Assembly (NCBI GenBank): GCA_963786375.1
Contig: CAWAYP010000008.1
Coordinates: 659 to 64,658, forward strand
Reading direction: 5' to 3'
Origin: an uncultured Verrucomicrobiae bacterium
GTDB lineage: Bacteria > Verrucomicrobiota > Verrucomicrobiia > Limisphaerales > UBA11358
DNA: 64,000 nt
Shown one piece after another: positions 3,871-64,000 of the stretch. The position numbers and the translations under genes are program-made. The notes under the pieces are model-generated. The model did no database searches. It worked only from the letters and a program-made list of their open reading frames with translations, and was not told where the DNA came from. The stretch's first letter is position 1. Every line of letters starts with the position of its first letter.

Positions 3871-5930
<2,060 letters not shown>

Positions 5931-5939
5931 GATTTTAAG

Positions 5940-15030: not shown

Positions 15031-15124
15031 ACCTTCAACATTATTTGCCGATGCAAAACTGGCGGAAGATGAAGTCGGGCAAATCTTCCGCCGCCGGGTT
15101 GCCCGGAAAGCAGGTTTCAACCCG

Positions 15125-18100
15125 CTACGGCGTGGACCCCAGTTGGATCCATTGCGTTTGCGTGCGATACTCGAGTCCGTCAGAAGTCTGAACGAGAGCA
15201 TAGAAAGGGAGCAGTCCGGCCCCTAAACCCGCTCCATTCACCTGGAAGACCGCCGTGGGTGAGTTGGTGGCCATGCCCAGCGCGCCGCCGTTGCTGAACA
15301 AGGTGATCAAGCTCACGGTGTTGGTGTTGGCATCAACCTGGATGTGGTAGGTGCCTTGCACTGGAGCTTGATTGGTCAGGTCGAGCAGCGTCAACGTTGC
15401 GCTCAAGGAACTATTTTGGATCGTGACGGGCACTGTCACCTGGGTTTCGGTCCGCACGTTGCTGCCTTCGTAGGCGACCGCCGTCAAGGTGTGATAACCG
15501 TCAGGCAGGGTTGTGGTGTCCAAGGGGAAAGTCAGGGACAAACTGGACGCGCCGGCTGTGACGTAAAGATGGTTTCGAGGCTCAAGATCGGACAGGTTCG
15601 CGGTGAGGGTGCTGCCCCCCGACGTGAACAAGGGAACTCTGAAGGACGACACAGTGGGGATTGCTTGTATTGCAGCAGCCTGGTAGCCGGCACTCCGGGC
15701 ATACAGATTAAAGGAGGTGAAGAAGAACGTGCCGTATTGGCTCACAATATAATCCTCGGCCTCAACACCGTCACTGCCCTGCAAGGCGGAATTCGCGTTT
15801 ATCGAGGTGAACAGTTGCGCGGCGAGCGCGACGGAATTGCCAGAAGACTGATTGGTGACGGCCACGACCACAGACTGGCCGTTGGTTTTGATAAAAGTGA
15901 ACTCCATCCAAGAATTGGCGGGAATCGAATTGCTAAGCTCCAAGTATTCCTGGAAACCGAGCGCTCCCGAGGCCAGCAAGGTGGGTTGGCTGGCGCGCAG
16001 AAAAGTTGTGAGACTTTCTCCACTTCCAATCGCACTGGCGGCAGTGGTTTGAATTGCACCAAGGTTAAAATTGGCAAGGTTAAAGTTGGTTGCCAGCACG
16101 GTAGATTGGCCTTGGTTCGTGGAGACTTCAACCACGTAAGGCTGCACGGCACTGTCCACGCGGACCAAGGTGAGGTTGGTCGTCACATCAAGCACTGTAA
16201 AGCCGGGCGGCGTCGGCGGCACATGCCAAACCCGATAAAATTCACCGCCGACATTCGTCGCGTTGCCATCAACAAAGTCCATCGCTCCGCCAAGTTGATT
16301 GGTAAAGATGGACATCCAATTAACAAGGTCCGGGGAGGTTTGGATGGCCCACGGCAAACCAGCCACACTGTCCACATGCAACTGGAATGTGCCCGAACCC
16401 ACAAACTGTGGCGCGGACAATTCGGTAGGCTGATCCGCGTCCGGCCAGGTCATGCGATAAAAGCGCGCGGGATAGTTCGTGGAGTCGAAATCGGTAAAAT
16501 TCAGCAGCCCCGGCACCGAGTTCGTGTAGATGGGCAGCCAATCCATTAAATTGGTTGAGGCCAAAATTACATAAGGCAATGCGCTGGGAATCCCCGCCGC
16601 CATCGTGAAGGCCCCGCTTGTGCCAGGACGACCGGGCAGCATCTGCGGCGGGGTTGAATCAGGCAGATAATTGACGCTGTAGGAGAGGCCCGGCGCATTT
16701 TGGGGAGTGTTATCCGCGACATAGAACGGGGCCAACGTTGAATAGCCGGCGATGGATTGCAGTTCAATACGGTCGCCATGACTCAAGGCCTTGACCTGTG
16801 TGGCGTTGGTGTCGGTGTTGATGAGGGCCGCCAATCCGGTTGTGATTGTGCTTAAGGTTGAGTTGGTGGGGACTGTGTAAGTGATGGGATAGCCATTCAG
16901 GATAACGGTCAATAGATTGCCGGGACACGGAACCGGGTTGGTCAATGTGCAGTAATACGTCCCATCCACAAACAAATCAACTTGCTGCAAAGGATGGTTC
17001 CCGTTGTAGGCGGAAAATTGCACGGATAGATTGGTAATGCTGCTCAGCTCGGCGTTGACGAGGTTGGTATCCCATTCTCCGTCACCCACCCGGGCAAAGG
17101 GCGCGGCCAGGGGTTCACCCACAATCAACCCAAGATACGGCGCATTGATGCTCTGATAATAGCTCTCGGCCAGACTGAAGCCGCGGGCCTGATAAAAATA
17201 ATCCTGGGGGTTGGGAAACTTCTGCGTGTCGTCTTCAGGCTCCACCACCGTGCCATAACTGCCGGCCGCGCCGGCATTGATGAAGGCCAGCAAGTTCGTC
17301 TGGCTGTTGGCGCCGAAAATGATGCCGCCGTAGGATGTCATACTGTCCGCAATGGCACCCGGAACAAAAGTGCTTTGCGGGACGCTGAATTGCGCCAGAC
17401 CCGTTTCATAGCCCAAGCAGCCGTTTGGCCACAAGACGGAATCGGTGTTGGTGCGCAGAATTGAGGAAACCCCCAGAATATTCACGTTGAAAATGGCATT
17501 GTCGAAAAACGGATAACGGATGTTCCGGAGTGTGTCGGAGCTTTTGGCCAAGACCACCGGTTGTTGGGGACGGGTCCCATCGCTTTCAACTCCCTGATCC
17601 ACCAATGCTTCCGCCTGGGCCAGTGAATCAGCCGTGATCATGGTGGTGAGAAAGGAATAGCCGGGCGCGCCGACGGGTGTCGCCTGGCGGAATACCGCTT
17701 CGCTGGCGGCATAACTGTTGGTGACACCCAATGGATCGCTCCCGTCACCCTGTCTGGAGCCATAGAACAAAGCCGAGGTCGTGCCGTTGACCACGGAGCC
17801 AAAGCTGGTCTGGAACGGGATATCCATCGAGAGAACAACGTAATCAATCTGGTTAGTCAACTGGCGGGCCGCCAGCATGTTCAACAAGGGCATTACCAGA
17901 TTGGTTTGAAGATCATTGCTGGCCCACAATGTGTTGCCGCCCGCCCAGTTGATGTATAACACATTTTGAGGCGGCACTTGGCGCTGTTCACAGAAGTAAT
18001 TGCCCAGTTCACATGAATTTGAACTGGCCTGGTTGATGACGACAACCGTGTTCAAGCCGCTGCCGCCAGCCTGTAGCCTGAATGCCAGGACACAATTCAA

Positions 18101-20310: not shown

Positions 20311-21759
20311 TTACTTTCCAATGCAAAACTGGCTGAAAATCGAGTCGAGCAAGTCCTCCGTCGCCGTTTTGCCGACGATTTCGCCGACGGCGTTGACGGC
20401 AATGCGCAAATCCAGTGCGGCCAGTTCCAAGGTCACGTTATCGCGCAGCGCGTCAATCGTCCGTTGTGTCGCCGCCCGCGCGCGGTTCAACGCGTCCTGA
20501 TGCCGGGAATTGATCATCGCCTGCAACATCCCGGCCTTGATTTCGCCGGACCAAATCAGTTCCTTGATGGCGTCCTTCAATGCTTCCATCCCCCGCCCGT
20601 TCAGGCAGCAAATGTCCGCGGTTACAGGTGGGGAAAAATTCCCCTCTCCCGTCCTGGCGGACACCCTCTCCCCGCTTTGCGGGGAGAGGGACGGGGTGAG
20701 GGGCTTGTTAAAAAACTCGTTGAGATTCAACCTTTGCGGCAAATCCATTTTGTTCCGGACCAGAATCCGTTTCTTGCCGGCAAACTCGTTGAGAAAATTT
20801 TCGTCCGCTTCCGTCAGCGGCTCGCTCGCGTCCAGCACGTGCAAAATGAACTCGGCCTTGGAAAGCGTTTCATGGCTGCGACGAATGCCTTCCTGCTCGA
20901 TCTCGTCGCGCGCCTCGCGCAAGCCCGCAGTGTCAATGAACACCACCGGCAGCCCGCGGATGTTCGCCGTCTCCTCAATCGTGTCGCGTGTCGTGCCGGG
21001 AATCGGCGACACGATGGCGCGGTCGCGCCCGAGCAGTTGATTGAGCAAACTCGACTTGCCCACATTGGGCCGGCCCACAATCGCCGCGCGGATGCCGCGG
21101 CGCAAAATCTGTCCCTCGTTCGCCGTCCGCAAAAGTTCGTTCATGAACATCACGCCGGCTTCCAGACGTTTCAGCAATTGGGCCTTGGTGTCGGGCGCGA
21201 TGTCTTCGTCGGGAAAATCAATATGCGCCTCGACGTGCGCCAGCGTCCTCATCATCTCATCACGCAATTCATTGACGCGTTGCGATAATTTGCCGGCGAG
21301 TTGCTCCTGGGCGGCGGCGAGCGCCAGTTCCGTGCGCGAATGAATCAAATCCACGACCGCCTCGGCCTGCGCCAGGTCAATGCGCCCGTTGAGAAATGCG
21401 CGCCGCGTGAATTCGCCGGGTTCGGCCAGCCGCGCGCCATTTTCCAAAAACGTGTCCAGCACCAGCTTCGCCGGCAAAAGGCCGCCGTGGCAGGTGATTT
21501 CGACGGTGTCCTCGCGCGTATAAGTGCGGGGCGAACGCAGGACGGCCAGCAACACCTCATCCACGTCCCGGCCCTGTCGGACAACCTTGCCGTACTGAAT
21601 CGTGTGCGTCGCCGCCGCAGAGGGTTTGAGTGAACATTTCCCAACCGGCAGAAAACCTTTGTCCGCAATGGTGAGGGCTTGCGGACCGGAAATCCGGACG
21701 ACGGCCAATCCGCCTTCGCCGAGCGGCGTGGCAATGGCGGCAATCGTGTCGTCAAACAT
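20311..21759 (-). CDS. mnmE: tRNA uridine-5-carboxymethylaminomethyl modification GTPase MnmE
   Basis: Motifs present: MFDDTIAAIATP..GGLAVVRISG, GRPNVGKSSLLN, DTAGLR, NKMD, SARTGEG and C-terminal CIGK. Confidence 0.9.
   Translation of the reverse strand: MFDDTIAAIATPLGEGGLAVVRISGPQALTIADKGFLPVGKCSLKPSAAATHTIQYGKVVRQGRDVDEVLLAVLRSPRTYTREDTVEITCHGGLLPAKLVLDTFLENGARLAEPGEFTRRAFLNGRIDLAQAEAVVDLIHSRTELALAAAQEQLAGKLSQRVNELRDEMMRTLAHVEAHIDFPDEDIAPDTKAQLLKRLEAGVMFMNELLRTANEGQILRRGIRAAIVGRPNVGKSSLLNQLLGRDRAIVSPIPGTTRDTIEETANIRGLPVVFIDTAGLREARDEIEQEGIRRSHETLSKAEFILHVLDASEPLTEADENFLNEFAGKKRILVRNKMDLPQRLNLNEFFNKPLTPSLSPQSGERVSARTGEGNFSPPVTADICCLNGRGMEALKDAIKELIWSGEIKAGMLQAMINSRHQDALNRARAATQRTIDALRDNVTLELAALDLRIAVNAVGEIVGKTATEDLLDSIFSQFCIGK
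20662..20704. repeat. Family D hairpin repeat (CACCCTCTCCCCG-loop-CGGGGAGAGGGACGGGGTGAGGGG) inside mnmE
   Basis: Matches the reverse complement of 32312-32353 except in the loop. It is translated as PLTPSLSPQSGER between the G4 and G5 motifs. Confidence 0.8.
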
Positions 21760-24457: not shown

Positions 24458-26158
24458 GTGAGCGTGGCGGACATTGTTTTAACCACGCTCAACGCGAAAT
24501 ACATCCACGCCGCGTTCGGCCTGCGTTACCTGCTGGCCAATCTGGGCGAACTCCGCCCGCGCGCCTGCCTCGCCGAGTTCGACATCAATCAGCGTCCGCT
24601 CGACATTGTGGAAATCCTGCTCGCGCGAAATCCCAAAATCATCGGCTGCGGCATTTACATCTGGAATGTTGAGCCAACCACCGAAGTCATCGCCGCCATC
24701 AAACGCGTCCGGCCCGACATCAAAATCATTCTCGGCGGACCGGAAGTCAGTTACGAAGCTGAAGAACAAAACATCGTCCAACTGGCCGACCATGTCATCA
24801 CCGGCGAAGCGGACTTGAAGTTCGCGGAGGTGTGCCGGGTGTTATTAAGCCGAATCAAATCAAAGGGCGTCAAAGAACAAACGAAAGTTCGAAACCCCCT
24901 CGCCCCGTCCCTCTCCCCCGTTGCCAACGGGGGAGAGGAGGTGCAACTCCCCAAAATCATTCCCGCCGAACCGCCGGAATTTTCACAACTTGCATTGCCC
25001 TACGATCTTTACACCGACGACGACATTGCGCATCGCATTATTTACGTCGAGGCGTCGCGCGGCTGTCCCTTCACGTGCGAGTTTTGCCTGTCGTCACTCG
25101 ACATTCCGGTGCGGCAGGTTCCACTGGAAAAAACTCTGGCGGAATTGCAGCGCCTGCTCGATCGCGGCGTGAAACAGTTCAAATTCGTTGACCGCACATT
25201 CAACCTCAACCTCGCCGTCAGCAAAACCATCCTCGAATTTTTTCGCGCGCGTTTTCAACCCGGCCATTTCTTTCACTTCGAAATGATTCCCGACCGGCTG
25301 CCGGAATCGTTGCGCGAGATCATCGCCAAATTTCCGCCCGGCGCTCTGCAATTCGAGGTCGGCATCCAGACGTTCAACGACGAAGTCAGCCATCTAATCA
25401 GCCGGCGGCAGGATTACGAAAAACTCGCCGATAATTTCCGTTACTTGCGCCACGAAACCGGCGTGCATATCCACGCCGATTTGATTGCCGGATTGCCCGG
25501 GGAAACGCTGGCAGATTTTGCCGCCGGGTTCGACCGGCTGATCGCGCTCGGTCCGCAGGAAATCCAGGTCGGCATTTTGAAACGGCTGCGTGGCACGCCG
25601 ATTGTCCGGCACGACGCCGAATGGAAGATGGTCTATAGCCCGCATCCGCCGTACGACATTTTGCAGAACAAACTGATTGATTTCGCCACGATGCAAAAAC
25701 TCAGACGGTTCGCGCGCTACTGGGACCTGGTCGGCAACAGCGGCAATTTCATCGAGACCACGCCGCTGATTTGGAATCCTGGAGGGAACCGCTCCGTCGC
25801 TTCCCAAACTTCTTTGGAAAGTCAGGGCACTGACAAAGGAGTGCCCTCCCAGGCGGTCACCCAGTCCTCCCCATTCTATTCATTCCTGCGCTTCAGCGAA
25901 TGGCTGTACGCCCGCACCGGCCGCACGGACGGCATCGCGCTGGCGCGGCTGATGGAACTGCTGTTAAAATTTCTTACCGGCGAACTCCGGCTTGACGCCC
26001 GGCCGGTGGCCGAGGCGCTTTGGCGCGATTACCGGCGCGGCGGCCGCCATGACCAACCGGGTTTTCTGAAGGATTTTCTGCCCGCGGACGAAACCGTGAT
26101 TCCATTGCGGAAAACCAAATCCATCCTGCCCAAACGCCAGGCCCGGCATTTGGTGTAA
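24458..26158 (+). CDS. B12-binding-domain radical SAM protein (DUF4080-like C-terminus)
   Basis: N-terminal [18 protein letters not shown] and the radical SAM cluster motif [11 protein letters not shown]. Confidence 0.75.
24896..24940. repeat. Family D hairpin repeat inside the radical SAM gene
   Basis: ccccctcgccccgtccctctcccccg-ttgccaa-cgggggagaggag, translated as [15 protein letters not shown]. This is the same element frame as in mnmE. Confidence 0.75.
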
Positions 26159-30410: not shown

Positions 30411-31325
30411 CTATCCGTAAATGTCGCTCAACGCGCCGCGCAATTCGGGAAATTGAAACTTGAAGCCGAGTTTGAGGAAACGCCTGGGCGCGCAACGCCG
30501 GCCGGTCAACGCCAGCGACGGGTCGGTTCGCATCAACCACGAGCCGAGCCGCACCGCCCAAACCGGCGCGGGCGGACACCGGGGACGGTGCAACGCCCGC
30601 CGCAGTTCAGCCATGAACTCCGCGTTCGTGACCGGGTTTGGCCCCGTGGCATTGAACACGCCAATCACCTCGCCCCGTTCGATGGAGTCCATCATCATTT
30701 GAGTCATGTCCGCCAGATGAATCCAGCTGACATACTGCCCCCCGCTGCCCGCTGCTCCGCCCAGAAACCATCTGGTCAATTTTCCCAGCACGGAAAGCGC
30801 GCCGCCATCGCGCGCCAGCACAAGGCCGGTTCGCAGCAACACGCGACGGGTGTTGGCCAACGGCACGGTTTTGAACGCAGTTTCCCAAAGCCGGCAGGTT
30901 TCCACCGCTTCACCCTGGCCGGACGGTGTGCCTTCCTCGCACCATCGGTCGTCCAAATCGCCATAGAACGCGAGCGCCCCCGCCTGCACCCACACGCGCG
31001 GCGGATCTGCCACGCTGTGAACCGCCGCGGCCAAAGCGTTCACGGAATTAATGCGTGATTCATTGATCTCGCGGACATTCTCCGGCGTGTGCCGGCAATT
31101 CACACTGCGCCCGGCAAGATTGACCATCGCGTGGGCGCCTTCCACAGATTGCACCCAATCGCCCAGCGTCCTCCCATTCCACGCCACTTCCTTGACGCCA
31201 TCGTCGCGCCCGCGCGGCAAACGCGTCAGCACCACCACCTCGTAATTTTTCAGGAGCAAATTCCGGGCGAGCGCCCGGCCGAGGAAACCGCTGCCGCCTG
31301 CGAGCACGACCCGTTTTTTATTCAT
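30411..31325 (-). CDS. NAD-dependent epimerase-family protein (TIGR01777/YfcH-like)
   Basis: Rossmann motif VVLAGGSGFLGRAL and a DUF1731-like C-terminus. Confidence 0.65.
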   Translation of the reverse strand: MNKKRVVLAGGSGFLGRALARNLLLKNYEVVVLTRLPRGRDDGVKEVAWNGRTLGDWVQSVEGAHAMVNLAGRSVNCRHTPENVREINESRINSVNALAAAVHSVADPPRVWVQAGALAFYGDLDDRWCEEGTPSGQGEAVETCRLWETAFKTVPLANTRRVLLRTGLVLARDGGALSVLGKLTRWFLGGAAGSGGQYVSWIHLADMTQMMMDSIERGEVIGVFNATGPNPVTNAEFMAELRRALHRPRCPPAPVWAVRLGSWLMRTDPSLALTGRRCAPRRFLKLGFKFQFPELRGALSDIYG

Positions 31326-31776
31326 GGCCGGTCCTTTCCAGTTTCAATTCCGGCGCGGTTTGGTCCGTCAACGGATTGACGCCAAACTGCGTCCGCTCCA
31401 GCTCTTTCAGCCATTTTCGGGCCAATGTACCCACGGTCTCCAGGTTCAAATGTTCATGCACGCGCGGATATTTTTCGAAGTTTGCACAGGCGAGCTTGAA
31501 CAGCGCGGCGGCGGGCGGCGGACGGTTTTTTTGCAGGTGTACGAACGCGCCGGCCAGTTGAATCAGCCCCTTGTAAAACGCGCCGTTCGCGCCATGCTTG
31601 TCCTTGAGCCATAAATTTTCCAGCACCTCATGCGCTTCGTAAAATTGCCGGCGATTGAAACAATCAAAATAACCAAGATAATGGGGGTCCAGTTTCCGCC
31701 CGTGATGATGGCCCACCATTTCGGCAATGCGTTTGCTCTTGCGGCTCACGCAGGCAGGGTAATGTCCAAAATCCAA
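31318..31776 (-). CDS. DUF309-domain protein
   Basis: FNRRQFYEAHEVLENLWL is the motif typical of DUF309. The ORF overlaps the downstream gene by 8 nt. Confidence 0.6.
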   Translation of the reverse strand: MDFGHYPACVSRKSKRIAEMVGHHHGRKLDPHYLGYFDCFNRRQFYEAHEVLENLWLKDKHGANGAFYKGLIQLAGAFVHLQKNRPPPAAALFKLACANFEKYPRVHEHLNLETVGTLARKWLKELERTQFGVNPLTDQTAPELKLERTGHE

Positions 31777-31808: not shown

Positions 31809-31930
31809 GGTAGGGACGGCGCGCCGCGCCGTCCGCGCCGCGTTCAGCGGCGCAACTCCCTGCGTGAACCTTGGACGTTCATTCCGCCCGCTCCACGCGG
31901 GCGGGGACATCGCAGCGCGATGTCCCTACC
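31809..31930. repeat. Family A composite hairpin module (GTAGGGAC...GTCCCTAC), solitary copy
   Basis: ggtagggacggcgcgccgcgccgtcc / gcgccgcgttcagcggcgc / linker / ccgcccgctccacgcgggcgg / ggacatcgcagcgcgatgtccctacc. The architecture matches modules at 55.9-56.3 kb and 59.3-59.6 kb. Confidence 0.8.
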
Positions 31931-32311: not shown

Positions 32312-32353
32312 CCCCTCACCCCGTCCCTCTCCCCGTTTGGCGGGGAGAGGGTG
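32312..32353. repeat. Family D hairpin repeat, right copy of an inverted pair
   Basis: cccctcaccccgtccctctccccg-tttgg-cggggagagggtg. Confidence 0.8.
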
Positions 32354-50389: not shown

Positions 50390-50516
50390 GGTGGGGCAAG
50401 CGTCCTCGCAAGCCGCAGCACTATTACCCCGGCTCGTCAGCAGCCTCGCCCCACCAAAAGCATGGCCCACCAGGGTGAAGTCCTACCACCGGTGGGGCGA
50501 GCGTCCTCGCGAGCCG
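50390..50516. repeat. Family B repeat cluster (GGTGGGGCGAGCGTCCTCGCGAGCCG), three units in +,-,+ orientation
   Basis: Units at 50390-50416, 50431-50455 (inverted) and 50491-50516, immediately upstream of the first RAYT gene. Confidence 0.8.
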
Positions 50517-50573
50517 GGGTAAAGGGGAAATTCAAACTTTCAAACGCTTTGTTCAACCAATAATTTCGAAAAC

Positions 50574-51095
50574 GTGAACCGGTATCAAGACAACCAATTT
50601 CCTCAACGCCAAAATCCTTCACCCGGCGTCCATATCCAATTGGGCCAATCCAACATGGTCCTGCTGACGATTACCACCGAAAAGCGCGAACCCTGGCTGG
50701 CCAATGAAGGAGCACATCAGCTTCTTCACCAGACCTGGTCAGAAGCGACTGCCTGGTTGGTCGGCGATTACTTGCTGATGCCGGACCATTTTCACTTGTT
50801 TTGTGCACCGGGAGATTTGCACTTCACCATTGAAACGTGGATTTCCTATTGGAAGCGCGAATTCGCGCTAAAGCAAAAACAGCTCGCGAGGACGCTCGCC
50901 CCACCAAAAAGCGTCGTCCCGCCAGAATGGAAATTTCAGTCACGCGGCTGGCATCATCGGCTGCGTGATGGTGAAAATTATTCGGAGAAGTGGGTTTACG
51001 TGCAGGAAAATCCGATCCGTAAAGGATTGGTTAAACGAATTGAAGACTGGCCATTCAAAGGTCGAGTGTTTGATTTGATTTGGACTGGAAAGTGA
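50574..51095 (+). CDS. REP-associated tyrosine transposase (RAYT, IS200/IS605 Y1 HUH family), copy 1
   Basis: HUH motif LMPDHFHLF and tyrosine motif WVYVQENPIRKGLV...DWPF. GTG start. Confidence 0.75.
   Translation: MNRYQDNQFPQRQNPSPGVHIQLGQSNMVLLTITTEKREPWLANEGAHQLLHQTWSEATAWLVGDYLLMPDHFHLFCAPGDLHFTIETWISYWKREFALKQKQLARTLAPPKSVVPPEWKFQSRGWHHRLRDGENYSEKWVYVQENPIRKGLVKRIEDWPFKGRVFDLIWTGK
50883..50906. repeat. Family B repeat unit inside RAYT copy 1
   Basis: gctcgcgaggacgctcgccccacc, translated as LARTLAPP. Confidence 0.7.
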
Positions 51096-52125: not shown

Positions 52126-52150
52126 GGCTCGTCAGTAGCCTCGCCCCACC
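52126..52150. repeat. Family B repeat unit just right of the IS630
   Basis: ggctcgtcagtagcctcgccccacc. Confidence 0.7.
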
Positions 52151-54008: not shown

Positions 54009-54295
54009 CGCTGGCGCGCGGTCCGGCCACATCCTGTACGTGGACGGCTGCAGAATTTTTGAAACTGCTCTGTGGTCAGGCATCCCTTCGGGATCCATTC
54101 TCTCTGGCAGTTCCACTTAACATTGGCACAGGCGATTATTCGGCAGGGCTGACCTGCCGGTCAGCCAACCGGCGGCGCAGCAGCGCCGCCCCACCGTGTG
54201 TGTGTGTCAAAGTCATTGTGATTTGCCATAAAATCGGCGTGCGACGATTTTTCATGGCCTCCGGCAATCATGGCGTTTATGATTTTACGGCCATC

Positions 54296-55846
54296 ATGAA
54301 GTTGAAGCGACAATCGTTGGTTTCTCCCGGTTCCATCTCCCGCATGTTGCAAGCCGCGGAACAGGCCTGGAAACGCCGGGATTTCCCGCAAAACCTCGAG
54401 CTGCTGGAACGCGCCAGCCGGCTGGACCCGGCCAATCCAGCCATCCTGCTGCAATTGGGCCGGAGCCACGGGCTGGGTTTCGATTATGCCGCCGCCGAAC
54501 AATGTTTTGAACGGGCCATCCGCGTTACCTCGCGTAAGACCGAGACACTCGCGGCAGCGGGAATCCATAGCCGCGATTTCCGCAACCCGGAACTGGCCGA
54601 ACGCTACTTCCGGCGGGCCGCCGAACAAAAAGATGCCCCGCCCGAGGCGCTGATTTATCTGGCCGAGCTTTACGAACGTCTCCGCCGCGGAGCCGAGGCC
54701 GCCCAATTGATTGACCGGGCGCTGCAATTGAACGGCGCCTGCCCGCCGGCCCTGCTCGCGCGCGCCCGGCTGGAACGCCAGGCCGGCCAACTGGCAGAGG
54801 CCGAACAGCGGTTGCGCTCCATTCCCAAAACCGCCGACCGGGACACGCGGGTGCGGAGCCTTTACGAACTGGGCGCCGTCCTCGACCGCCAGGGCCGGTA
54901 CGATGAAGCCATGACCGCCTTCCTTGAGGCCAAGTCCATGCTGCGCCAGGATGCGACGGGCTGGCTGGCGGAATTAATGGTCGTTCGCGACCGCTTGAAG
55001 GTCATGCGGGCCAACATTACGGCCGAACTGTTTCAAAAGTGGTTCGACACCGCCCCGGCGCTGGCGCCCGCCCGGAGAATCGCCCTGCTCTGCGGCCATC
55101 CCCGCTCCGGCACCACCCTGCTCGAACAGGTCCTGGACTCCCACCCGGACATCATCTCCGCCGAGGAGACGGAACTGTTCCATGACTACGCCTACATGCC
55201 GGTGATGCGAGGTTCGCCGGAAGGCGCGCTCATGCTGCCCGTTTTGGAATCGGCGCCAACCGACTTGCTGAAACATGCGCGCGACCGATATTTCCGGCAA
55301 ACGGAATTGCTCCTGGGCCGGCCAATCAAAGGCCGGTTGCTCATTGATAAAAATCCGTCGCTCACTTTTTTCATCCCCGCCATCCTGCGCGTGTTTCCCG
55401 AATTAAAACTCCTGATTGCGTTGCGCGATCCGCGGGACGTGGTCCTGAGCTGTTTCATGCAGGCCTTTGTTCCCATCGGGCAAGTCACCGCCGCCTACCT
55501 GACCCTGGAAGGCACCGTGGACGAATATGCCGCCCTGGTGGGCATCTGGCAGACCCTGGCTCCGCTGCTGCAAGGCCATTATCTCGAACTGCGTTACGAG
55601 GACATGGTGGACGATTTGGAATCCGTCTCCCGAAAGTCGCTGGATTTTCTGGGCGTTCCGTGGGACGCCAACGTGCTGCATTTTGACGAACACGCGCGGC
55701 AGAAACAGGTGCGCTCGCCCACGTACGCCGACGTGGCCAAACCGGTATTCAAAACCGCCGTCGGCCGCTGGCGGAATTATCAGAAATATCTGGAGCCGTT
55801 CCTGCCCAAATTGGAGCCGTTTGTGAAGGCATTTGGATATGAGTAG
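54296..55846 (+). CDS. TPR-domain sulfotransferase, paralog 1
   Basis: N-terminal TPRs, PAPS-binding-like CGHPRSGTTLLEQ and RDPRDVVLSCF. The ATG at 54296 matches the starts of the paralogs. Confidence 0.75.
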   Translation: MKLKRQSLVSPGSISRMLQAAEQAWKRRDFPQNLELLERASRLDPANPAILLQLGRSHGLGFDYAAAEQCFERAIRVTSRKTETLAAAGIHSRDFRNPELAERYFRRAAEQKDAPPEALIYLAELYERLRRGAEAAQLIDRALQLNGACPPALLARARLERQAGQLAEAEQRLRSIPKTADRDTRVRSLYELGAVLDRQGRYDEAMTAFLEAKSMLRQDATGWLAELMVVRDRLKVMRANITAELFQKWFDTAPALAPARRIALLCGHPRSGTTLLEQVLDSHPDIISAEETELFHDYAYMPVMRGSPEGALMLPVLESAPTDLLKHARDRYFRQTELLLGRPIKGRLLIDKNPSLTFFIPAILRVFPELKLLIALRDPRDVVLSCFMQAFVPIGQVTAAYLTLEGTVDEYAALVGIWQTLAPLLQGHYLELRYEDMVDDLESVSRKSLDFLGVPWDANVLHFDEHARQKQVRSPTYADVAKPVFKTAVGRWRNYQKYLEPFLPKLEPFVKAFGYE

Positions 55847-56398
55847 GTAAGGACACGTCGCCGACGTGTCCGCGCCCCAACCGGGCGCAACCTTCCGGCG
55901 GCTTTTCCGCCGGAGACATCGCAGCGCGATGTCCCTACCAAATCACATTCATCCGACAATGGCAGAATGGCGCGCCGCGCCGTCCGAGCGCCGCGTCCAG
56001 CGGCGCAATCGCGGATTCAAAAACCTTGCACCCTCGTTCCGCCCGCTGGACGCGGGCGGGGACGGGTAGGGACACGTCGCCGACGTGTCCGCGCCCCAAC
56101 CGGGCGCAACTTTCCGGCGGCTTTACCGCCGGGAACATCGCAGCGCGATGTCCCTACCAAATCACATTCATCCGACAATGGCAGGATGGTTCGCCGCGCC
56201 GTCCGAGCGCCGCGTCCAGCGGCACAATCGCGGATTCAAAAACCTTGCACCCTCGTTCCGCCCGCTGGACGCGGGCGGGGACGGCTGGGGCCAGCCGTCC
56301 CTACCGGGTAGGGACACGTCGCCGACGTGTCCGCGCCCGAACCGGGCGCAATTCCGGCGGCGTTACCGCCGGGGACATCGCAGCGCGATGTCCCTACC
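55847..56398. repeat. Family A repeat array 1 (three four-hairpin units alternating with two long modules)
   Basis: Recurring gtagggacacgtcgccgacgtgtcc gcgccccaaccgggcgc ..tccggcggctttaccgccgga gacatcgcagcgcgatgtccctacc. It starts at the stop codon of paralog 1. Confidence 0.85.
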
Positions 56399-56399
56399 A

Positions 56400-56432
56400 G
56401 AACCGTTTGTAAAGGCGTTTGGATACAAGTAA
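56400..56432 (+). pseudogene. Orphan 3' tail (last about 10 codons plus stop) of a sulfotransferase paralog
   Basis: gaaccgtttgtaaaggcgtttggatacaagtaa encodes EPFVKAFGYK*. Compare LEPFVKAFGYE* at the ends of both intact paralogs. Confidence 0.7.
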
Positions 56433-56450
56433 GGTGGTCGAGAGACAAGG

Positions 56451-56527
56451 GCTGCGGCTCGTCAGTAGCCTCGCCCCACCACCATATGGTCACATCAGGT
56501 GGGGCGAGCGTACTCGCGAGCCGCAGC
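56451..56527. repeat. Family B inverted pair forming a long hairpin
   Basis: gctgcggctcgtcagtagcctcgccccacc, a 17-nt spacer, then ggtggggcgagcgtactcgcgagccgcagc. Confidence 0.8.
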
Positions 56528-56598
56528 TAATTGTGTGAGTCCCTGTGGATTTTCTCCGCTTGCGCGGGAAACCAGAGCCTTTATGATTTCGGCACATC

Positions 56599-58194
56599 AT
56601 GAAGTTGAAGCGCCCACAGTTGGTCCACCACAGTTCCGTCGTTAAATTGTTCCAGGCCGCCGAGCAGGCGCTGCAACGCAAGGATTTCCAGCAAAATTTC
56701 GAGCTGCTCGAACGCGCCCGCAGCCTGGACCCGGCCAATCCCGCCATTCTGCTGCAATTGGGCCGGAGCCACGGGTTGCGCTACAATTATACCGCCGCCG
56801 AGGAATGCTTTGAAAAAGCCATCCAGCTTGCCCAAAACAAAACCCAAATCATGGCAATGGCCGGCGCGCAAAGCTGCGATTTTTTCAATCCGGAGTTGGC
56901 GGAGCGTTATTTCCGGCGGGCCGTGGAACAAAAGGACGCCACCGTTGGAATGCTGGTCCAATTGGCGGAGATTTATGAAATGTTCTTCCACCGCATGGCC
57001 GAGGCCAGTCAAATGATTGATCGGGCGCTGCAAATGGATCCCACTTTTCAGAGGGCCTTGCTGACGCGCGCCCGGCTGGAGCGCCAGGCCGGCCATTTGG
57101 AAGAAGCCGAGAAATTGCTGCGCTCCATTCTCGCAACGACTGATCAGGAGACGCGCATCCGGGCCTATTATCAGTTGGGCGCCGCCCTGGATCGTCAGGG
57201 GCGATATGATGAAGCGATGGCGGCTTTCATCGAGGCCAAGGCGCCTTTTCAGGCGCAGAGCGGGGCATTCTTTCTTCAACGTCAAATTGCCGGCGCGCAT
57301 TTGCGGGAGATACTCACCAGTATTTCCGCCGAAACTTTCCAGCGCTGGTTTGATTTTGGCCGGGAACTACAACCACCCCGGCGGCTGGCCATGCTTTGCG
57401 GCCATCCCCGCTCCGGCACCACCTTGCTGGAGCAGGTGCTGGATTCGCATCCGGACATCATTTCCGCCGAGGAAACGACTGTTTTCTATGAGTCTGTGTA
57501 TCTGCCTTTGGCGCGCACGCAACCGCCGCCAGCACCTCGCCCAGGCCTGCCCCCACAATTCCAAATGTCCGATCAAGTAGAACTTTCGGTGCTGGAAGCC
57601 GCCCCGAAGGATTTGTTGCAGCAATTGCGGGAGAATTATTTCCAAACCATGGAGCGTTGCCTGGGAAAACCCATTGACAACCGGCTGTTAGTTGACAAAA
57701 ACCCGGCGCTCACGCTGCTGCTCCTCGGTTTCCAGCGCGTCTTCCCGGAAGTCAAACTCATCGTCGCACTGCGCGACCCGCGAGACGTGGTCTTGAGTTG
57801 TTTCATGCAGAATTTTGCGGTTCTTGCCCCAAGACATACCGCCTTCTTCAACTTGAAGGACACAGTCGAGCAATATGTCGAGGAAATGAACATCTGGCGG
57901 ACGCTGGCGCCCATGATTCCGGGCCGGTATCTCGAAGTCCGGTACGAGGACATGGTGGAGGATTTGGAATCCGTTGCCCGCAGGACGCTGGATTATTTGG
58001 GCGTTTCCTGGGACGTCAAGGTGGTGCATTTTTACGAACGGGCGCGGCAGAGACGGGTGCGCACGCCCGGTTACGCGGACGTAGGCAGGCCGGTCTTCAA
58101 AACCGCGCGGGGCCGCTGGCGGAATTATCAGAAATATCTGGAGCCGTATCTGTACCGGCTGGAGCCGTTTGTAAAGGCGTTTGGATATGAGTAG
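56599..58194 (+). CDS. TPR-domain sulfotransferase, paralog 2
   Basis: Same architecture and motifs as paralog 1 (CGHPRSGTTLLEQ, RDPRDVVLSCF, ..LEPFVKAFGYE*). Confidence 0.75.
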   Translation: MKLKRPQLVHHSSVVKLFQAAEQALQRKDFQQNFELLERARSLDPANPAILLQLGRSHGLRYNYTAAEECFEKAIQLAQNKTQIMAMAGAQSCDFFNPELAERYFRRAVEQKDATVGMLVQLAEIYEMFFHRMAEASQMIDRALQMDPTFQRALLTRARLERQAGHLEEAEKLLRSILATTDQETRIRAYYQLGAALDRQGRYDEAMAAFIEAKAPFQAQSGAFFLQRQIAGAHLREILTSISAETFQRWFDFGRELQPPRRLAMLCGHPRSGTTLLEQVLDSHPDIISAEETTVFYESVYLPLARTQPPPAPRPGLPPQFQMSDQVELSVLEAAPKDLLQQLRENYFQTMERCLGKPIDNRLLVDKNPALTLLLLGFQRVFPEVKLIVALRDPRDVVLSCFMQNFAVLAPRHTAFFNLKDTVEQYVEEMNIWRTLAPMIPGRYLEVRYEDMVEDLESVARRTLDYLGVSWDVKVVHFYERARQRRVRTPGYADVGRPVFKTARGRWRNYQKYLEPYLYRLEPFVKAFGYE

Positions 58195-58530
58195 GTAGGG
58201 ACACGTCGCCGACGTGTCCGCGCCCCAACCGGGCGCTACGTTCCGGCGGCTTTACCGCCGGAGACATCGCAGCGCGATGTCCCTACCAAATCACATTCAT
58301 CCGACTATGGTAGGGATGGCGTGCCGCGCCGTCCGAGCGCCGCGTCCAGCGGCGCAATCGCGGATTCAAAAACCTTGCACCCTCGTTCCGCCCGCTGGAC
58401 GCGGGCGGGGACGGCTGGGGCCAGCCGTCCCTACCGGGTAGGGACACGTCGCCGACGTGTCCGCGCCCCAACCGGGCGCAACTTTCCGGCGGCTTTACCG
58501 CCGGAGACATCGCAGCGCGATGTCCCTACC
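58195..58530. repeat. Family A repeat array 2
   Basis: Same units as array 1. It spans from the stop codon of paralog 2 to the stop codon of RAYT copy 2. Confidence 0.85.
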
Positions 58531-59218
58531 ATTCAAACTGAGGGCGTTGGCCGTCAGCAAAATAAACGAACGGCCAGTCTTCGGGGCGTGGGGCCAGTTC
58601 TTTCCGCACGGGATTTTGCAGGATGTAATCTGCCTTTTCACGGCGACTTTCCTCATGCCTCAACCGATGTTCGAAAAAATCACGTTGCCATTGGATGCCC
58701 AATTGCCGGGCTGTCCACCGTTTCCAAGAACTCACGACCTCCTGCAACGTGCGTTCCGCCCGCTGAACGCGCGCGGGGACGCCTCGGCGAGACATCCCTA
58801 CCGGGTAGGGACACGTCGCCGACGTGTCTGCGCCCCCGGCGGGCGCAGTTCCGGCAGCTTTACCGCCGGAGATCTCCCGGCCTGGCGTTCCTACCGGATT
58901 CGTTGGTAGGGACATCTCGCCGAGATGTCCGCCCTCCTCCCGGACGCCTGAGCCAGGCGTCCCTACCATGAGATTTGCGGGTGGAAAGGCAATCAAGGCA
59001 TGAACATGGTCGGGCATGAGGAGAAATAAATGGGCAAACCAGATGAATTGTTCGTTGCGGAAACGGACGCTGTCCAGCAATGGCCCGGCAACGTCGGGCC
59101 TGGCAAGATGATTGATTTCCCGGGGCTGGCAATTGACGGTGACGAAGCAAATTTCCAGTTGAGGATCAACCCACAACGGAATTTCGTGCGGCAACATCTT
59201 CCTGCGGGGAACAAACAC
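58526..59218 (-). CDS. REP-associated tyrosine transposase (RAYT), copy 2, carrying an in-frame family A repeat insert
   Basis: N-terminal LPHEIPLW...ICFVTVN, HUH motif LMPDHVHALI and tyrosine motif ADYILQNPVRKELA..DWPF. About 72 codons (58752-58968) are repeat-derived. Confidence 0.75.
   Translation of the reverse strand: MFVPRRKMLPHEIPLWVDPQLEICFVTVNCQPREINHLARPDVAGPLLDSVRFRNEQFIWFAHLFLLMPDHVHALIAFPPANLMVGTPGSGVREEGGHLGEMSLPTNPVGTPGREISGGKAAGTAPAGGADTSATCPYPVGMSRRGVPARVQRAERTLQEVVSSWKRWTARQLGIQWQRDFFEHRLRHEESRREKADYILQNPVRKELAPRPEDWPFVYFADGQRPQFEW
58752..58968. repeat. Family A repeat block inside RAYT copy 2
   Basis: Contains gggtagggacacgtcgccgacgtgtc..., ggtagggacatctcgccgagatgtcc and ggacgcctgagccaggcgtccctacc. 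Confidence 0.8.
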
Positions 59219-59270: not shown

Positions 59271-59642
59271 GGTAGGGCCAGCGCGCTGCGCCGTCCGCGC
59301 CCCAAGGGCGCAACGTTCCGGCGGCTTTACCGCCGGGGACATCGCAGCGCGATGTCCCTACCACTTTGCAATGGTTCGGTAGGGACATCTCGCCGAGATG
59401 TCCTGCGCCGTGTTCAGCGGCGCAATTGAAGATTCGGAAAGTCACGCGCTTTCGTTCCGCCCGCTCTGCGCGGGCGGGGACGGCTGAGCCAGCCGTCCCT
59501 ACCAAGCCGATATTTGGGTAGGGACATTTCGCCGAGATGTCCTGCGCCGCCTTCAGCGGCGCAATTGAAGGTTCGGGAAGTCGCGCGGTTTCGTTCCGCC
59601 CGCTCTGCGCGGGCGGGGACGGCGCAGCGCGCCGTCCCTACC
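59271..59642. repeat. Family A repeat array 3
   Basis: One four-hairpin unit followed by two long modules (59379-59504 and 59516-59642), ending in gtccctacc. Confidence 0.85.
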
Positions 59643-59649: not shown

Positions 59650-59680
59650 AAAAAAACCCGCTCTTCCTCGGAAGAGCGGG
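59650..59680 (-). terminator. Rho-independent terminator of the PEP-CTERM gene 59715..60338
   Basis: cccgctcttc-ctcg-gaagagcggg (59657-59680) with a T run after the hairpin on the minus strand. Confidence 0.65.
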
Positions 59681-61907: not shown

Positions 61908-63371
61908 TTGAGTCTGAGTTGTGCCAGAACAACACCCGCACGTCCCTGTCAAGACAAGCGGACCAAGGACACCAGGCGCGAATCGGTGCGGGCAATAGAA
62001 AGACTAGCAATGAAAGCATGTTCACACAAGGTCGAAAGACGCGGTTCATGGGATGAGCAACCGCCGGGAGGCGGCGGCGTGACGTTTCCAAGGGAAGTCG
62101 ACAGAAACGCGTTAGAGGCGACGCCGCCGATATTTCAACGGATCGGTGATTGTCTTTACCGGAAAGGTGGTGCCATTTACGCCCGTGTGCGGCTGAATGG
62201 CAAACCGAATTGGCGCAGCACGGGCACCGACAATCCAGCGGAAGCCCGGAAGTGGCTCGAAAAATGGCGTGGCGAGAAGTGGATGCAGGAACACGGCATT
62301 GAGGCAAAGGGTGTCATGCTACATCGCCAGCGCGTCACGGTGGGCGAATTGATGGACAGCTACGTTAGAGACGGGATGCGAACACGCAAGGGGCGCCCGA
62401 AAAGTCCGGCCACACTCAAGAATGAGCAAGCCTATCTAAAGCCATTGCGGAAATATTTCGGAAGTAAACAAGCGGCGGCAGTGTCGTTGGCGGATTGTGA
62501 CGGATACCGCGATTGGAGAATCAGCGGCGGATATCAAGCCGATGCGGAGACGGATGATATACGGAAGAAGAGGCAACGGTTGCGAGCGGGTACGCCCAGC
62601 GTTGACTTGGAGCTGACAATTTTGAGCAACGTGTTTAGTCTGGCCGTGCGGCGGGTGGTGCTTAAATCAAACCCATTGGCGGGCAGAGGCCGTTACAGTG
62701 TAGCAGAGGACACCCGGCATTGCCGAGAAGTTGCGCCGACACCGGAAGGATTAAAGCAAATTGAACACTCGCTGCGGGCAAGGAATGAGCATGGCATGGC
62801 GGACGTGGTTTGTTTCCTTGCCTACAGTGGATTGAGGATTGGTGAGGCTTTGCCGTTGGATTGGGATGCGGTGGATTGGGAACAAAAGATTTTGAAGGTC
62901 AAAAGGGAGAAACGCGGCATCATGCCCTGGGTGCCGATTCTACCCGAAATGGAGGCTTTGCTGCGCCGGATGCGGAAGCGAACCACCGGCCACTTGCTGT
63001 TTCCATCGCCATATCACCCTGACACGCCGCGCGCTGGTTCGGCAGTCAGAAATCGCCTTACGGCGGCTTGCCGTGAGCTCGGGCTGGGGCATGTAACGCC
63101 GCACGGTCTACGCTCGTACTTTGTCACGCAGGCACGTCAAAGCGGGCTTTCTGACGCCGAAATCGCCATGCTGATAGGCGACAAGACCGGCCCGGCAATC
63201 ATCGCCAAAATCTACGGTGATGTGCGGCCTGATCATTTGTTCCGGCAAGCACAGCGAATCCGGCTAACGGTGCAATCCGGCCAGGATGGTGAAAGGCAAA
63301 CGAGCAGTGTCAAAAGTAGTAACACGTTGCCTGGTGTTTCACCGTGTCCCATCGTGACGCCGGAGGCTTAA
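61908..63371 (+). CDS. Tyrosine-type site-specific recombinase/integrase (start probably internal, e.g. 62010)
   Basis: Catalytic-domain contexts GLRIGEAL, HVTPHGLRSYFVT and IAKIYGDVRPDH, with an N-terminal SAM-like arm. Confidence 0.8.
   Translation: MSLSCARTTPARPCQDKRTKDTRRESVRAIERLAMKACSHKVERRGSWDEQPPGGGGVTFPREVDRNALEATPPIFQRIGDCLYRKGGAIYARVRLNGKPNWRSTGTDNPAEARKWLEKWRGEKWMQEHGIEAKGVMLHRQRVTVGELMDSYVRDGMRTRKGRPKSPATLKNEQAYLKPLRKYFGSKQAAAVSLADCDGYRDWRISGGYQADAETDDIRKKRQRLRAGTPSVDLELTILSNVFSLAVRRVVLKSNPLAGRGRYSVAEDTRHCREVAPTPEGLKQIEHSLRARNEHGMADVVCFLAYSGLRIGEALPLDWDAVDWEQKILKVKREKRGIMPWVPILPEMEALLRRMRKRTTGHLLFPSPYHPDTPRAGSAVRNRLTAACRELGLGHVTPHGLRSYFVTQARQSGLSDAEIAMLIGDKTGPAIIAKIYGDVRPDHLFRQAQRIRLTVQSGQDGERQTSSVKSSNTLPGVSPCPIVTPEA
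63310..63334. repeat. Right copy of the direct repeat, lying within the integrase 3' end
   Basis: See 61145-61169. Confidence 0.6.
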
Positions 63372-63452
63372 ATTGTCACAAAGACCAAAATTTACAAGGG
63401 GTTTGATGCGATTTGTTGAAGTGAAATGCCCGTCGAGGCTGCTACGGACAAT

Positions 63453-63481
63453 AAAAAAAGGCTCCGAATTGCTTCGGAGCC
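63453..63481 (-). terminator. Rho-independent terminator (minus strand)
   Basis: ggctccgaa-ttgc-ttcggagcc with an A7 run on the plus strand, which is a T7 run after the hairpin on the minus strand. Confidence 0.6.
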
Positions 63482-63516
63482 TTCTTACGAAATACTATCT
63501 ACTTGCCCTATCCGCT

Positions 63517-63590
63517 TATTTGCGGCGACGGAAAGCCAACAGTGAGGCAATGCCCAGACCCGCCAGCGCGAACGTGGCCGGGACCGTGCG
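63517..63590 (-). pseudogene. Remnant of a PEP-CTERM anchor (C-terminal about 24 codons only)
   Basis: The reverse complement reads TVPATFALAGLGIASLLAFRRRK*. The body of the gene is absent. Confidence 0.4.
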
Positions 63591-63652
63591 GCAACCGGCA
63601 AGCAACTTCCGCTTGCGCCGGAAACAGCGGCATCTATGATTTTGTGGTCATC

Positions 63653-64000
63653 ATGAAGTTGAAACGCCAGTCATTGGTTTCCCAGGGCTCCATTCCCGCA
63701 TGTTGGAGACCGCCGGGCAGGCGGCTTCGCGCGGCGACCACCAACAAAGCGTCGAGATTTTGGAACGGGCCAGCCGTCTGGACCCCGGCAATCCCAATTC
63801 TCCTGCACCTGGGAGCGTTTATGGCAAGCGTTACGATTCCGCTGCCGCCGAAGGTTGTTTTGAAAAGGCCGTTCGCTTTACGACCCGGAAAACGGAGTTG
63901 CTCGCCTGGCCGGGAAGCATTGCCGGGATTTTGGAAACTATGCGTTGGCCGAACGCTAGCTTCAGCGCGCCGTGGAGCAAAACGATGCCCCGCCGGAAGC
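63653..64000 (+). pseudogene. TPR-sulfotransferase paralog 3, 5' part, with frame disruptions; runs off the window
   Basis: Same leader and start as paralogs 1 and 2 (tatgattt..catcATGAAGTTGAA). The peptide MKLKRQSLVSQGSI.. continues as MLETAGQAASRGDHQQSVEILERASRLDPGNP.. and ..GKRYDSAAAEGCFEKAVRFTTRKTE only after frame changes. Confidence 0.65.

Follow-up and report, generated by a model that had tools for sequence, protein, structure and literature searches.

The closest described relatives of the repeats treated here are the repetitive extragenic palindromes (REPs), which are handled as folded single-stranded DNA (ssDNA) by a REP-associated tyrosine transposase (RAYT). In its folded single-stranded form, the REP of Escherichia coli is bound by the enzyme TnpA_REP via the stem foot and the 5' tetranucleotide GTAG; any change of GTAG abolishes cleavage, which takes place at a CT near the hairpin (PMC3479197). 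The REPs of Stenotrophomonas maltophilia are perfect palindromes (GTAG, 8-bp stem, GCT loop) in which the G opening the loop is indispensable; replacing stem blocks in a complementary manner is partly tolerated while a mid-stem mismatch nearly abolishes cleavage (PMC8266576). The GTAG superfamily of REPs extends to Verrucomicrobia (Opitutus terrae) and comprises head-to-head (HH) and tail-to-tail (TT) heterodimers with structured spacers of 20-100 bp; dimers and their flanking DNA are reiterated in tandem clusters, and in-frame intragenic REPs coding for 20-82 residues have already been described (PMC3733652). Here we analyse a hairpin array (array 1, positions 55847-56398) and its surroundings in a 64-kb stretch of an uncultured Verrucomicrobiia genome, called the window, to which 5 kb were added. 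The repeats of this array, referred to as family A, are very probably GTAG-tagged REPs, a known kind of element, recognised as ssDNA by a neighbouring RAYT that we call RAYT-A. What carries this assignment is observed directly: the anatomy of the repeats, their enrichment, the covariation of their stems, the conservation of the RAYT and the REP-flanked RAYTs of related genomes.

The 8-mer GTAGGGAC is present 21 times in the window for 0.37 +/- 0.58 copies expected, a count reached by none of 100 shuffles. The copies form five clusters (arrays 1 to 3, a solitary module and a block inside RAYT-A, see Table 1), four of them intergenic and one inside an open reading frame (ORF), and about 25 REPs are found in the 64 kb if one head mismatch is allowed. 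Each REP is made of an unpaired GTAG, a perfect stem of 9-10 bp (GGAC-N5 ... N5'-GTCC) and a loop of 3 nt, rarely 4, which starts with G (GCC or GCT) and whose positions 1 and 2 (G, C) are nearly invariant. GTAG is invariant in 21 of the 21 exact window copies and unpaired in the predicted folds, and the dimensions of stem and loop fit the range published for GTAG REPs (stem 5-13 bp, loop 2-20 nt). Wherever GGAC-N13/14-GTCC is accompanied by an outer GTAG or CTAC, the interior forms 5 to 6 Watson-Crick pairs out of 6, at every site, whereas the background GGAC...GTCC sites (n=22) form only 0 to 4.

Each REP is coupled to an adjacent auxiliary hairpin of 7-8 bp, and half-units of this kind stand opposed in pairs, their GTAG tags outermost and their stems unlike. 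The resulting modules, bounded by GTAGGGAC...GTCCCTAC, belong to two classes, S (90-92 nt) and L (about 105-125 nt), and the arrays are built of S+L units with a period of 219-243 nt. In the window the S modules measure 92, 92, 90, 92, 92, 92 and 90 nt. The 92-nt S module at 56066-56157, for instance, consists of GTAG, GGACACGTC-gcc-GACGTGTCC, GCGCCC-caacc-GGGCGC and the joint aacttt, followed by a right half made of CCGGCGG-cttta-CCGCCGG, ga, ACATCGC-agc-GCGATGT and the end CCCTAC. The modules were folded as ssDNA, with 200 shuffles each: the S module of 92 nt reached -34.7 kcal/mol against -18.2 +/- 2.4 for its shuffles (z = -6.9), and the L modules of 120-124 nt, which repeat the S layout with other stems and a 26-33-nt linker, gave z values of about -6.4, an extra weak fifth hairpin being predicted in the linker. 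Overall z ranged from -5.3 to -6.9, and no shuffle out of 200 folded as well. Minimum free energy (MFE) and centroid folds both consist of four separate hairpins, and the arms differ (e.g. ACGTC vs ATCGC).

A previous sequence-only reading of the array had described much of this anatomy. It located the array correctly: the first base (in GTAAGGAC) directly follows the TAG at 55844-55846 of gene 54059-55846, a TPR-sulfotransferase gene (Pfam Sulfotransfer_3 and TPR), and the array ends at 56397/8. It had proposed multi-hairpin modules, and the ssDNA fold of the 92-nt S module returns exactly the four hairpins that it listed; the longer module of the same layout but different stems that it had noticed is the L class. 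Two of its statements have to be corrected. The basic unit is not of about 97 nt but of 90-92 nt when measured from GTAG to CTAC, and GTAGGGAC/GTCCCTAC is not a clamp closing the module: in the predicted folds GTAG is unpaired and GGAC forms the base of each local stem, the 8-mers being the tag of a REP and its counterpart on the other strand. We also considered that the auxiliary hairpins might be independent genomic targets, as for T. roseum GTAG-23; this was rejected for the window, all 23 of its copies being located within modules.

The gene that identifies these repeats as the REPs of a REPtron was overlooked by the sequence-only reading, as was the segmental and tandem origin of much of the repetition. 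RAYT-A lies 2 kb from array 1, between arrays 2 and 3, with family-A arrays on both of its sides. The translation of ORF 58526-59218 (minus strand) contains PDHVHAL (HUH motif) and KADYILQNP (catalytic tyrosine), and in-frame translation of family-A repeats accounts for the 72 residues that split its two halves. Because this insert splits the domain, no Pfam match was obtained for the ORF as encoded; the NCBIfam model NF047646 (REP_Tyr_transpos) matched in two pieces with 72.7 bits, below its cut-off of 80 bits, and scored 81.3 bits once the REP-derived insert was removed in silico. The spliced protein retrieved 816 database relatives with 57-76% identity, many of them named 'REP element-mobilizing transposase RayT' and several originating from Verrucomicrobiota metagenome-assembled genomes (MAGs). 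Its sole solved relative is E. coli TnpA_REP (PDB 4ER8, E = 4.4e-7), and PDHVH and KADYIL are invariant across the RAYT alignments. The exact RAYT-A protein is also found on a 504-kb metagenomic contig (ENA ERZ25039529 contig_10664), and the database entry for a 230-aa member of its cluster, from a Verrucomicrobiia MAG, calls it a hypothetical protein. AlphaFold models the core with confidence (predicted local distance difference test, pLDDT, about 90). Judged by its motifs and relatives, RAYT-A is an HUH Y1 tyrosine transposase. Its stop TAG falls within the GTAG of the adjoining REP, and a survey of such repeats (PMC3733652) notes an overlap of a REP with the 3' end of the gene for other RAYT genes. 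RAYT genes ending in ...TGG TAG, with the TAG inside GTAGGGAC, occur in the window (58526-58529) and at two related loci (L002 3496-3501 and L075 3568-3573). Both sulfotransferase genes of the window end in GAG TAG, with GTA(A/G)GGAC directly after (55844-55849, 58192-58197).

To find relatives, the RAYT alignment was scanned against species-representative genomes, which yielded 72 related RAYT loci (given here as L plus a number), nearly all of them in Verrucomicrobiota MAGs, with the RAYT at locus coordinates of about 3001-3420. A GTAG-hairpin was counted when GTAG preceded a perfect hairpin of 8 bp or more; by this criterion 48 of the 72 loci have at least one and the other 24 have none. 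The flanking arrangement was viewed directly in 23 printed loci; inverted GTAG-hairpins bracket the RAYT, most often around positions 2900 and 3430-3500. GTAG is constant and the stem is genome-specific, as illustrated by GGACGCCTCG, GGTCGCCTCG, GGACGGCTC-tcc, GGGCAGCTC-ccc, CCGCCGCTG-tcc and GGGCGCAAT. The locus closest to the RAYT of the window is L037, with 86% identity over the N-terminal half. The gene order PEP-CTERM protein gene, terminator, REP modules, RAYT and convergent TPR-sulfotransferase is common to the window, L037, L074, L075 and L076, and is found less complete in L002. Since the gene order of the window recurs in these related loci, the RAYT sits at a conserved, vertically inherited locus. 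At L064 (790-1040), a RAYT with a large internal deletion, probably a pseudogene, is still flanked by REPs.

Half-units associating a REP with an auxiliary hairpin were only found in the close relatives L002 (eight modules of 94 nt), L004, L008, L037 and L075, the other genomes having bare REP dimers. The four-hairpin layout is therefore a lineage-specific elaboration. It had been presented as more elaborate than classical single-hairpin REPs, which is only half true: inverted dimers (bacterial interspersed mosaic elements, BIMEs, and the REP doublets called REPINs) and spacers with two stem-loops were already known (PMC3733652).

Covariation of the stems was measured on sites picked by the 8-mer GTAGGGAC alone, ignoring the interior, in the window and in all loci. 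A first set comprised 91 distinct 25-mers assigned the structure ....(((((((((...))))))))) and a second, enlarged set comprised 224 GTAGGGAC sites from 43 sources, three orthologous loci having been added. In the first set, 84.6% of the cells pair, a figure that shuffling the 3' letters lowers to 69.9 +/- 1.0%, and the covariation score is 0.423 against 0.169 +/- 0.012; neither value was reached in 500 shuffles. All five interior pairs show changes on both sides, column pair 10-20 being for instance GC 30 times, CG 24 times and UA 14 times, and pair 12-18 GC 32 times, UA 30 times and CG 10 times. Among the 224 sites of the second set, the GTCC closure is in the 13-nt register in 162 and in the 14-nt register in 23. 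The interiors of the 162 sites have 5 pairs out of 5 in 126 cases, 4 in 31, 3 in 5 and fewer in none. They include 19 distinct perfectly paired interiors, and on distinct sequences the paired fraction is 0.895 compared to 0.509 for shuffled ones (maximum 0.584 in 2000 shuffles).

The sequence-only reading had claimed that the interior of the GGAC...GTCC hairpin changes while both halves always stay complementary. The covariation itself extends to this larger sample picked without regard to the interior, in which no body of non-complementary interiors came to light; 'always' is slightly too strong, since the window has one G.T wobble (copy 59518), a single mismatch at the stem base (GTCT or GTTC) in about 7 of roughly 25 REPs and four degenerate REPs (55847, 58310, 58777, 59272). 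Among single mismatches, 16 of 23 are G.T or A.C, the intermediates expected of a transition awaiting compensation. Compensatory changes are also seen between orthologous L modules of the window and L037, where both REP stems differ by paired changes (GGCGC/GCGCC against ATCAC/GCGAT, and ATCTC/GAAAT against ATCCC/GGGAT) around an identical auxiliary hairpin. The auxiliary hairpins vary by paired changes too: CCGGCGG/CCGCCGG vs CCGCCCG/CGGGCGG corresponds to two G-C to C-G flips, and a second pair of variants is GCGCCC/GGGCGC vs GCGCCGC/GCGGCGC. That the stem interiors covary under selection on structure rather than sequence, as had been proposed, is the right reading.

Such a pattern might also be a by-product of copying, through palindromic duplication, arm-to-arm correction or the amplification of a few master sequences. 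Array 1 indeed duplicates array 2 plus a tandem unit, so that identical copies are not independent, and REP stems and auxiliary hairpins are mixed and matched among modules, which suggests recombination or conversion. We nevertheless regard copying as a quite improbable source of the covariation. The 19 perfect stems and the excess of paired interiors concern distinct sequences from 43 sources, and controls in which the partner was slid by 1-3 columns, which keep the relatedness of the sequences, bring the covariation score down to 0.07-0.16. Moreover, the prevalence of G.T and A.C among single mismatches is what mutation followed by compensation predicts, orthologous modules of two genomes differ by paired changes, and a stem mismatch nearly abolishes RAYT cleavage in the published assays (PMC8266576). 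The covariation is explained most economically if hairpins have to stay intact in order to be substrates of the RAYT.

The position of the repeats raises another alternative. Arrays 1 and 2 each directly follow the stop codon of a gene, on its coding strand, and are probably transcribed; the RNA fold of the entire array 1 is very stable (z = -12.4), and REPs of other bacteria are reported (PMC3733652) to affect mRNA stability and termination. The hairpins could be primarily RNA elements selected by the host, i.e. stem-loops of the 3' untranslated region (3'-UTR) that stabilise or terminate the transcripts of the sulfotransferase and neighbouring genes. This seems unlikely to us, since each module has REPs in both orientations and the modules themselves lie in both orientations relative to genes, also upstream of them and inside an ORF, while the conserved GTAG and loop G are strand-specific features of a RAYT DNA substrate. 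No T-tract terminator was found at the REPs by scanning, a separate hairpin at 59657-59680 being the sole hit. At gathering as well as at permissive thresholds, Rfam 15 did not detect any known RNA family in the arrays, whose best scores of 16-28 bits compare with cut-offs of 41-218, a tRNA elsewhere in the window being the sole match above threshold. Finally, the same repeats flank RAYT genes in dozens of genomes. A promoter scan of the window found promoter-like sites no more often than expected by chance. A secondary RNA effect on mRNA 3' ends is plausible; it would not explain the family.

With their 8-nt inverted termini (GTAGGGAC/GTCCCTAC), the modules could recall miniature inverted-repeat transposable elements (MITEs) of a DDE transposon, the more so as genes for IS5/IS1182-type DDE transposases and a tyrosine integrase are located a few kb away; integron attC sites or an array resembling CRISPR would be further candidates. 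These readings deserve hardly any credence and were rejected on anatomy. The termini belong to local hairpins and not to a long terminal repeat, no target-site duplication exists around the solitary L module (aaag | ... | ccac) or the arrays, and the gene between the repeats encodes an HUH Y1 transposase rather than a DDE enzyme. Constant-length unique spacers and cas genes are lacking for a CRISPR array, as are a GTTRRRY core site and cassette ORFs for attC sites. Two inverted copies of a gene for a 457-aa DDE transposase (DUF772/DDE_Tnp_1) are found at L001 (1271-2644 and 5474-6847), just past the RAYT locus, where they bracket a tyrosine integrase gene (4324-5319) and a peptidase gene; the copy at 5474-6847 corresponds to about positions 62350-63725 of the window.

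We come back to the recognition of family A by RAYT-A, for which the following mechanism may be proposed. The modules would be non-autonomous elements whose folded single strands are recognised by RAYT-A. Enzymes of this class depend on GTAG, on an intact stem and on a particular base in the loop, and they cleave at a nearby CT, strand transfer being possible. Copies with a perfect hairpin would stay substrates and propagate while others would drop out, so that stem interiors would drift only via compensatory pairs, and GTAG, the stem base and the loop G/C would stay fixed. Selection would then act on the propagation of the element, possibly strengthened by host uses of the hairpins. Arrays also grow through ordinary tandem and segmental duplication.

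Array 1 gives an example of such duplication. It aligns, through S, linker, L and S, to array 2, and the match also takes in some 100 nt at the end of the paralogous sulfotransferase gene (56599-58194). Beyond this match array 1 has one more linker-L-S unit, the period being 219-242 nt and the tandem units 96% identical. The present end of the first sulfotransferase gene (TAG, abutting the REP) matches the end of the paralogue, and an older end with TAA is found as a second copy of the last 11 codons after array 1. These two facts imply, at the level of the sequences compared, that 'gene end plus array' passed between the sulfotransferase paralogues, the direction being possible either way, and that the old end was left behind; array 1 probably derives from array 2. 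A 23-nt deletion in the first L copy of array 1 takes exactly one REP hairpin (CGGCTGGGGCCAGCCGTCCCTAC) between short CGG repeats (56060-56066 vs 58404-58437), which looks like slippage across the hairpin. As copies of this kind are not independent, the copy number within 55847-56398 says little on transposition; it is the remaining clusters and the related genomes that supply independent evidence.

Several points weigh against our assignment. Most copies at 55847-56398 are products of segmental and tandem duplication, not separate insertions. The two REPs of a module are unlike in stem and do not form the single long hairpin of a REPIN, and the role of the auxiliary hairpins falls outside known RAYT biochemistry. 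With its 72-residue insert, RAYT-A as encoded scores under the NCBIfam cut-off, and that it is active we infer only from purifying selection and an intact predicted core. Binding, cleavage and mobilisation of the REPs by RAYT-A would follow from homology and from the published biochemistry of related enzymes; likewise, the modules would be mobile in this genome, of which 64 kb (plus 5 kb) were covered.

Table 1. Family-A arrays and modules, RAYT genes with their inserts, and repeats of the second REP family. Positions are those of the window unless a locus is named.
Feature	Positions	Strand	Description
Array 1	55847..56398		S - linker - truncated L - S - linker - L - S; 3' of the stop of the TPR-sulfotransferase gene
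S module (array 1)	55847..55938	+	head GTAAGGAC, stem ACGTC, loop GCC; GCGCCC and CCGGCGG hairpins; inverted REP with stem ATCGC
L module, right REP deleted (array 1)	55962..56065	+	head degenerate, GCAGAAT in place of GTAGGGAT; 23-nt deletion
S module (array 1)	56066..56157	+	92 nt, four hairpins
L module (array 1)	56181..56304	+	degenerate left REP; GCGCCGC hairpin; ~32-nt linker; CCGCCCGC hairpin; inverted REP GGCTGGGGCCAGCC
S module (array 1)	56308..56397	+	90 nt
Relic of the final 11 codons of the sulfotransferase gene	56399..56432	+	GAACCGTTTGTAAAGGCGTTTGGATACAAGTAA, ends TAA
Array 2	58195..58529		S 58195-58286, L 58310-58434, S 58438-58529; between the sulfotransferase paralogue 56599-58194 and the RAYT-A 3' end
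RAYT-A	58526..59197	-	223 aa; HUH = HVH, catalytic Tyr in KADYIL
Intragenic block in RAYT-A (insert)	58751..58966		216 nt in frame: partial L, S 58805-58896, short dimer 58906-58966
Array 3	59272..59641		S 59272-59361, L 59379-59502, L 59518-59641; upstream of RAYT-A
Solitary L module	31810..31929	+	intergenic, without direct repeat of the flanks
RAYT insert, L002	3229-3279		
RAYT insert, L037	3220-3560		
RAYT insert, L074	3253-3412		
RAYT insert, L075	3240-3350		
RAYT insert, L076	3253-3300		
Second REP family	50390-50520		
Second REP family	50880-50913		
Second REP family	52138-52150		
Second REP family	56447-56530		

We specifically analysed the REPs located inside RAYT genes. Of the 120 closest RAYT proteins, 8 have, at a single site behind FPPS, an in-frame insert of 17-110 residues derived from REPs, a set that includes the protein of the window and its nearest relatives. 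The insert is present in all six syntenic or closely related RAYT genes (Table 1), after FPPS and before a long helix. Outside of it, the core of these six genes shows pairwise ratios of nonsynonymous to synonymous substitution rates (dN/dS) of 0.06-0.20, the dS values being 0.9-1.9, so the insert is an old one and purifying selection acts on the RAYT proteins. Across the 216-nt insert of RAYT-A only a single reading frame of the three stays open, namely the one that the gene uses. AlphaFold assigns its residues 78-144 a pLDDT <50, in a loop between the HUH strand and the next long helix, and the insert is thus predicted to be a disordered loop. The intragenic REP of RAYT-A lies just before this putative DNA-binding helix. 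In four genomes the last intragenic REP, GGTAGGGACGGCTGGCCCAGCCGTCCCCGCCCG, has the same sequence despite synonymous differences in the codons next to it. Two intragenic REPs of L074 (3280-3304, 3355-3380) have ATAGGGAC instead of GTAGGGAC, with perfect stems (9/9). At L008 (3080-3150), an independent in-frame REP dimer of about 23 residues is found elsewhere in the RAYT, near residue 30.

A tentative and rather doubtful extension of these observations is that the building block of this clade is the bipartite unit of a REP and an auxiliary hairpin, and that the RAYT has kept a perfect in-frame unit since before the divergence of at least 6 genomes (dS about 1-2), as a substrate or operator or as a part of the protein. 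If so, the RAYT's own gene or mRNA would be a substrate or operator of the enzyme, leading to autoregulation or to a self-directed hot spot of insertion; alternatively, the REP-encoded loop would have become part of the RAYT protein. A literature search for REPs inside RAYT genes found no description of them in the papers covered, which does not establish novelty.

A second RAYT-like gene is located at 50574-51095 (plus strand). It scores 69.5 bits with NF047646 and is 37% identical to RAYT-A. Its own REP family, GGTGGGGCGAGCG..., has a GTGG head (GGTGGGGCGAGCGTCCTCGCGAGCCG) and ~7 copies, among which an inverted pair right after array 1, and here again the gene carries its own REP in frame, as an insertion of 13-15 residues relative to the RAYT-A profile. 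Beside the solitary L module, ORF 31318-31776 gave no family match and so no support as a further RAYT.

Two other features of the window were recorded. A third hairpin family, CCCTCTCCCCG(C)...(G)CGGGGAGAGGG, has perfect stems of 11-13 bp unlike those of family A (20664-20690, 24910-24938, 32325-32351). The first 17 kb form an inverted repeat (1-7204 and 9843-17055) whose arms extend over at least 7.2 kb to the window edge around a 2.6-kb centre. Their identity drops from 99-100% at the outer ends to about 84-87% near the centre, and either a genuine inverted duplication or a foldback artefact of the assembly may underlie the structure.

No new biology is required by these results. They contribute a well-resolved REP-RAYT system in a phylum for which metagenomes are almost the only source; in Verrucomicrobiota such repeats go unannotated and the transposase is labelled 'hypothetical protein'. 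The family amounts to a natural experiment on how a RAYT reads its substrate, GTAG, the four pairs of the stem foot and the first two loop bases being fixed and five pairs being free if paired. In practical terms, REP arrays break up short-read assemblies and yield spurious ORFs. They can also remodel gene ends, as seen here with two stops that abut a REP, one that lies inside a REP and one gene with a duplicated 3' end. A long-lived, conserved in-frame REP in a RAYT gene offers, for its part, a testable handle on the mutual regulation of domesticated transposases and repeats.

Compared with known systems, the hairpins resemble the subterminal hairpins of IS200/IS605 elements (IS608, ISDra2), which combine an ssDNA hairpin, a 5' tetranucleotide and an HUH Y1 transposase without target-site duplication. 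Those hairpins bound an element carrying its own transposase, whereas in the window they are dispersed over five clusters and the transposase gene would be single and immobile. The CGTC-3 REP dimers of Agrobacterium tumefaciens (PMC3733652) have two small stem-loops at the spacer ends and hence the same four-hairpin layout, but their superfamily, CGTC, lacks an associated transposase, and they are unrelated in sequence. REPINs (Bertels and Rainey 2011, PMC3116915) share two inverted REPs at fixed spacing and a vertically inherited, putatively single-copy RAYT at a conserved locus; their arms are complementary and form one long hairpin, unlike the four hairpins of the modules, and the second family of the window (GGTGGGGCGAGCG...) looks more REPIN-like than family A. 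In E. coli BIMEs (Y/Z REPs; L, S, l, r and s linkers), two REP types likewise alternate in orientation with few fixed linkers, in tandem behind genes, and TnpA_REP (PDB 4ER8, PMC3479197) is homologous to RAYT-A. The likeness is one of architecture and does not extend to sequence: no similarity to BIME linkers or to the Y and Z consensus was found in the window modules, and E. coli REPs are imperfect palindromes with a bulge whereas those of the window are perfect.

The likeness is closest to the GTAG-tagged REPs and REPtrons (Nunvar 2010; Ton-Hoang 2012; Di Nocera et al. 2013, PMC3733652). They have in common the unpaired GTAG followed by a short GC-rich perfect palindrome, the HH inverted heterodimers with GTAG outside, the spacers of 20-100 bp, the tandem clusters of dimers with flanking DNA, the occurrence in Verrucomicrobia (Opitutus terrae), the location 3' of ORFs and for some copies in frame within genes, and a RAYT gene flanked by the repeats and overlapped by them at its 3' end. 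They differ in that each REP of the window carries a conserved auxiliary hairpin, giving a four-hairpin dimer, and in that the GGTAGGGAC-N13-GTCC family and its uncultured Verrucomicrobiia host are absent among the 24 GTAG families compared in the portion of that survey available to us. Finally, the Group 3 REPtron of Stenotrophomonas maltophilia (Corneloup et al. 2021, PMC8266576) differs in stem sequence, and the system of the window is known from sequence alone; both have GTAG, a perfect stem (8-9 bp in S. maltophilia) and a 3-nt loop with G first (GCT), and the requirements published for S. maltophilia match the invariants of the window, namely GTAG, the stem base and loop positions 1 and 2, with a free interior.

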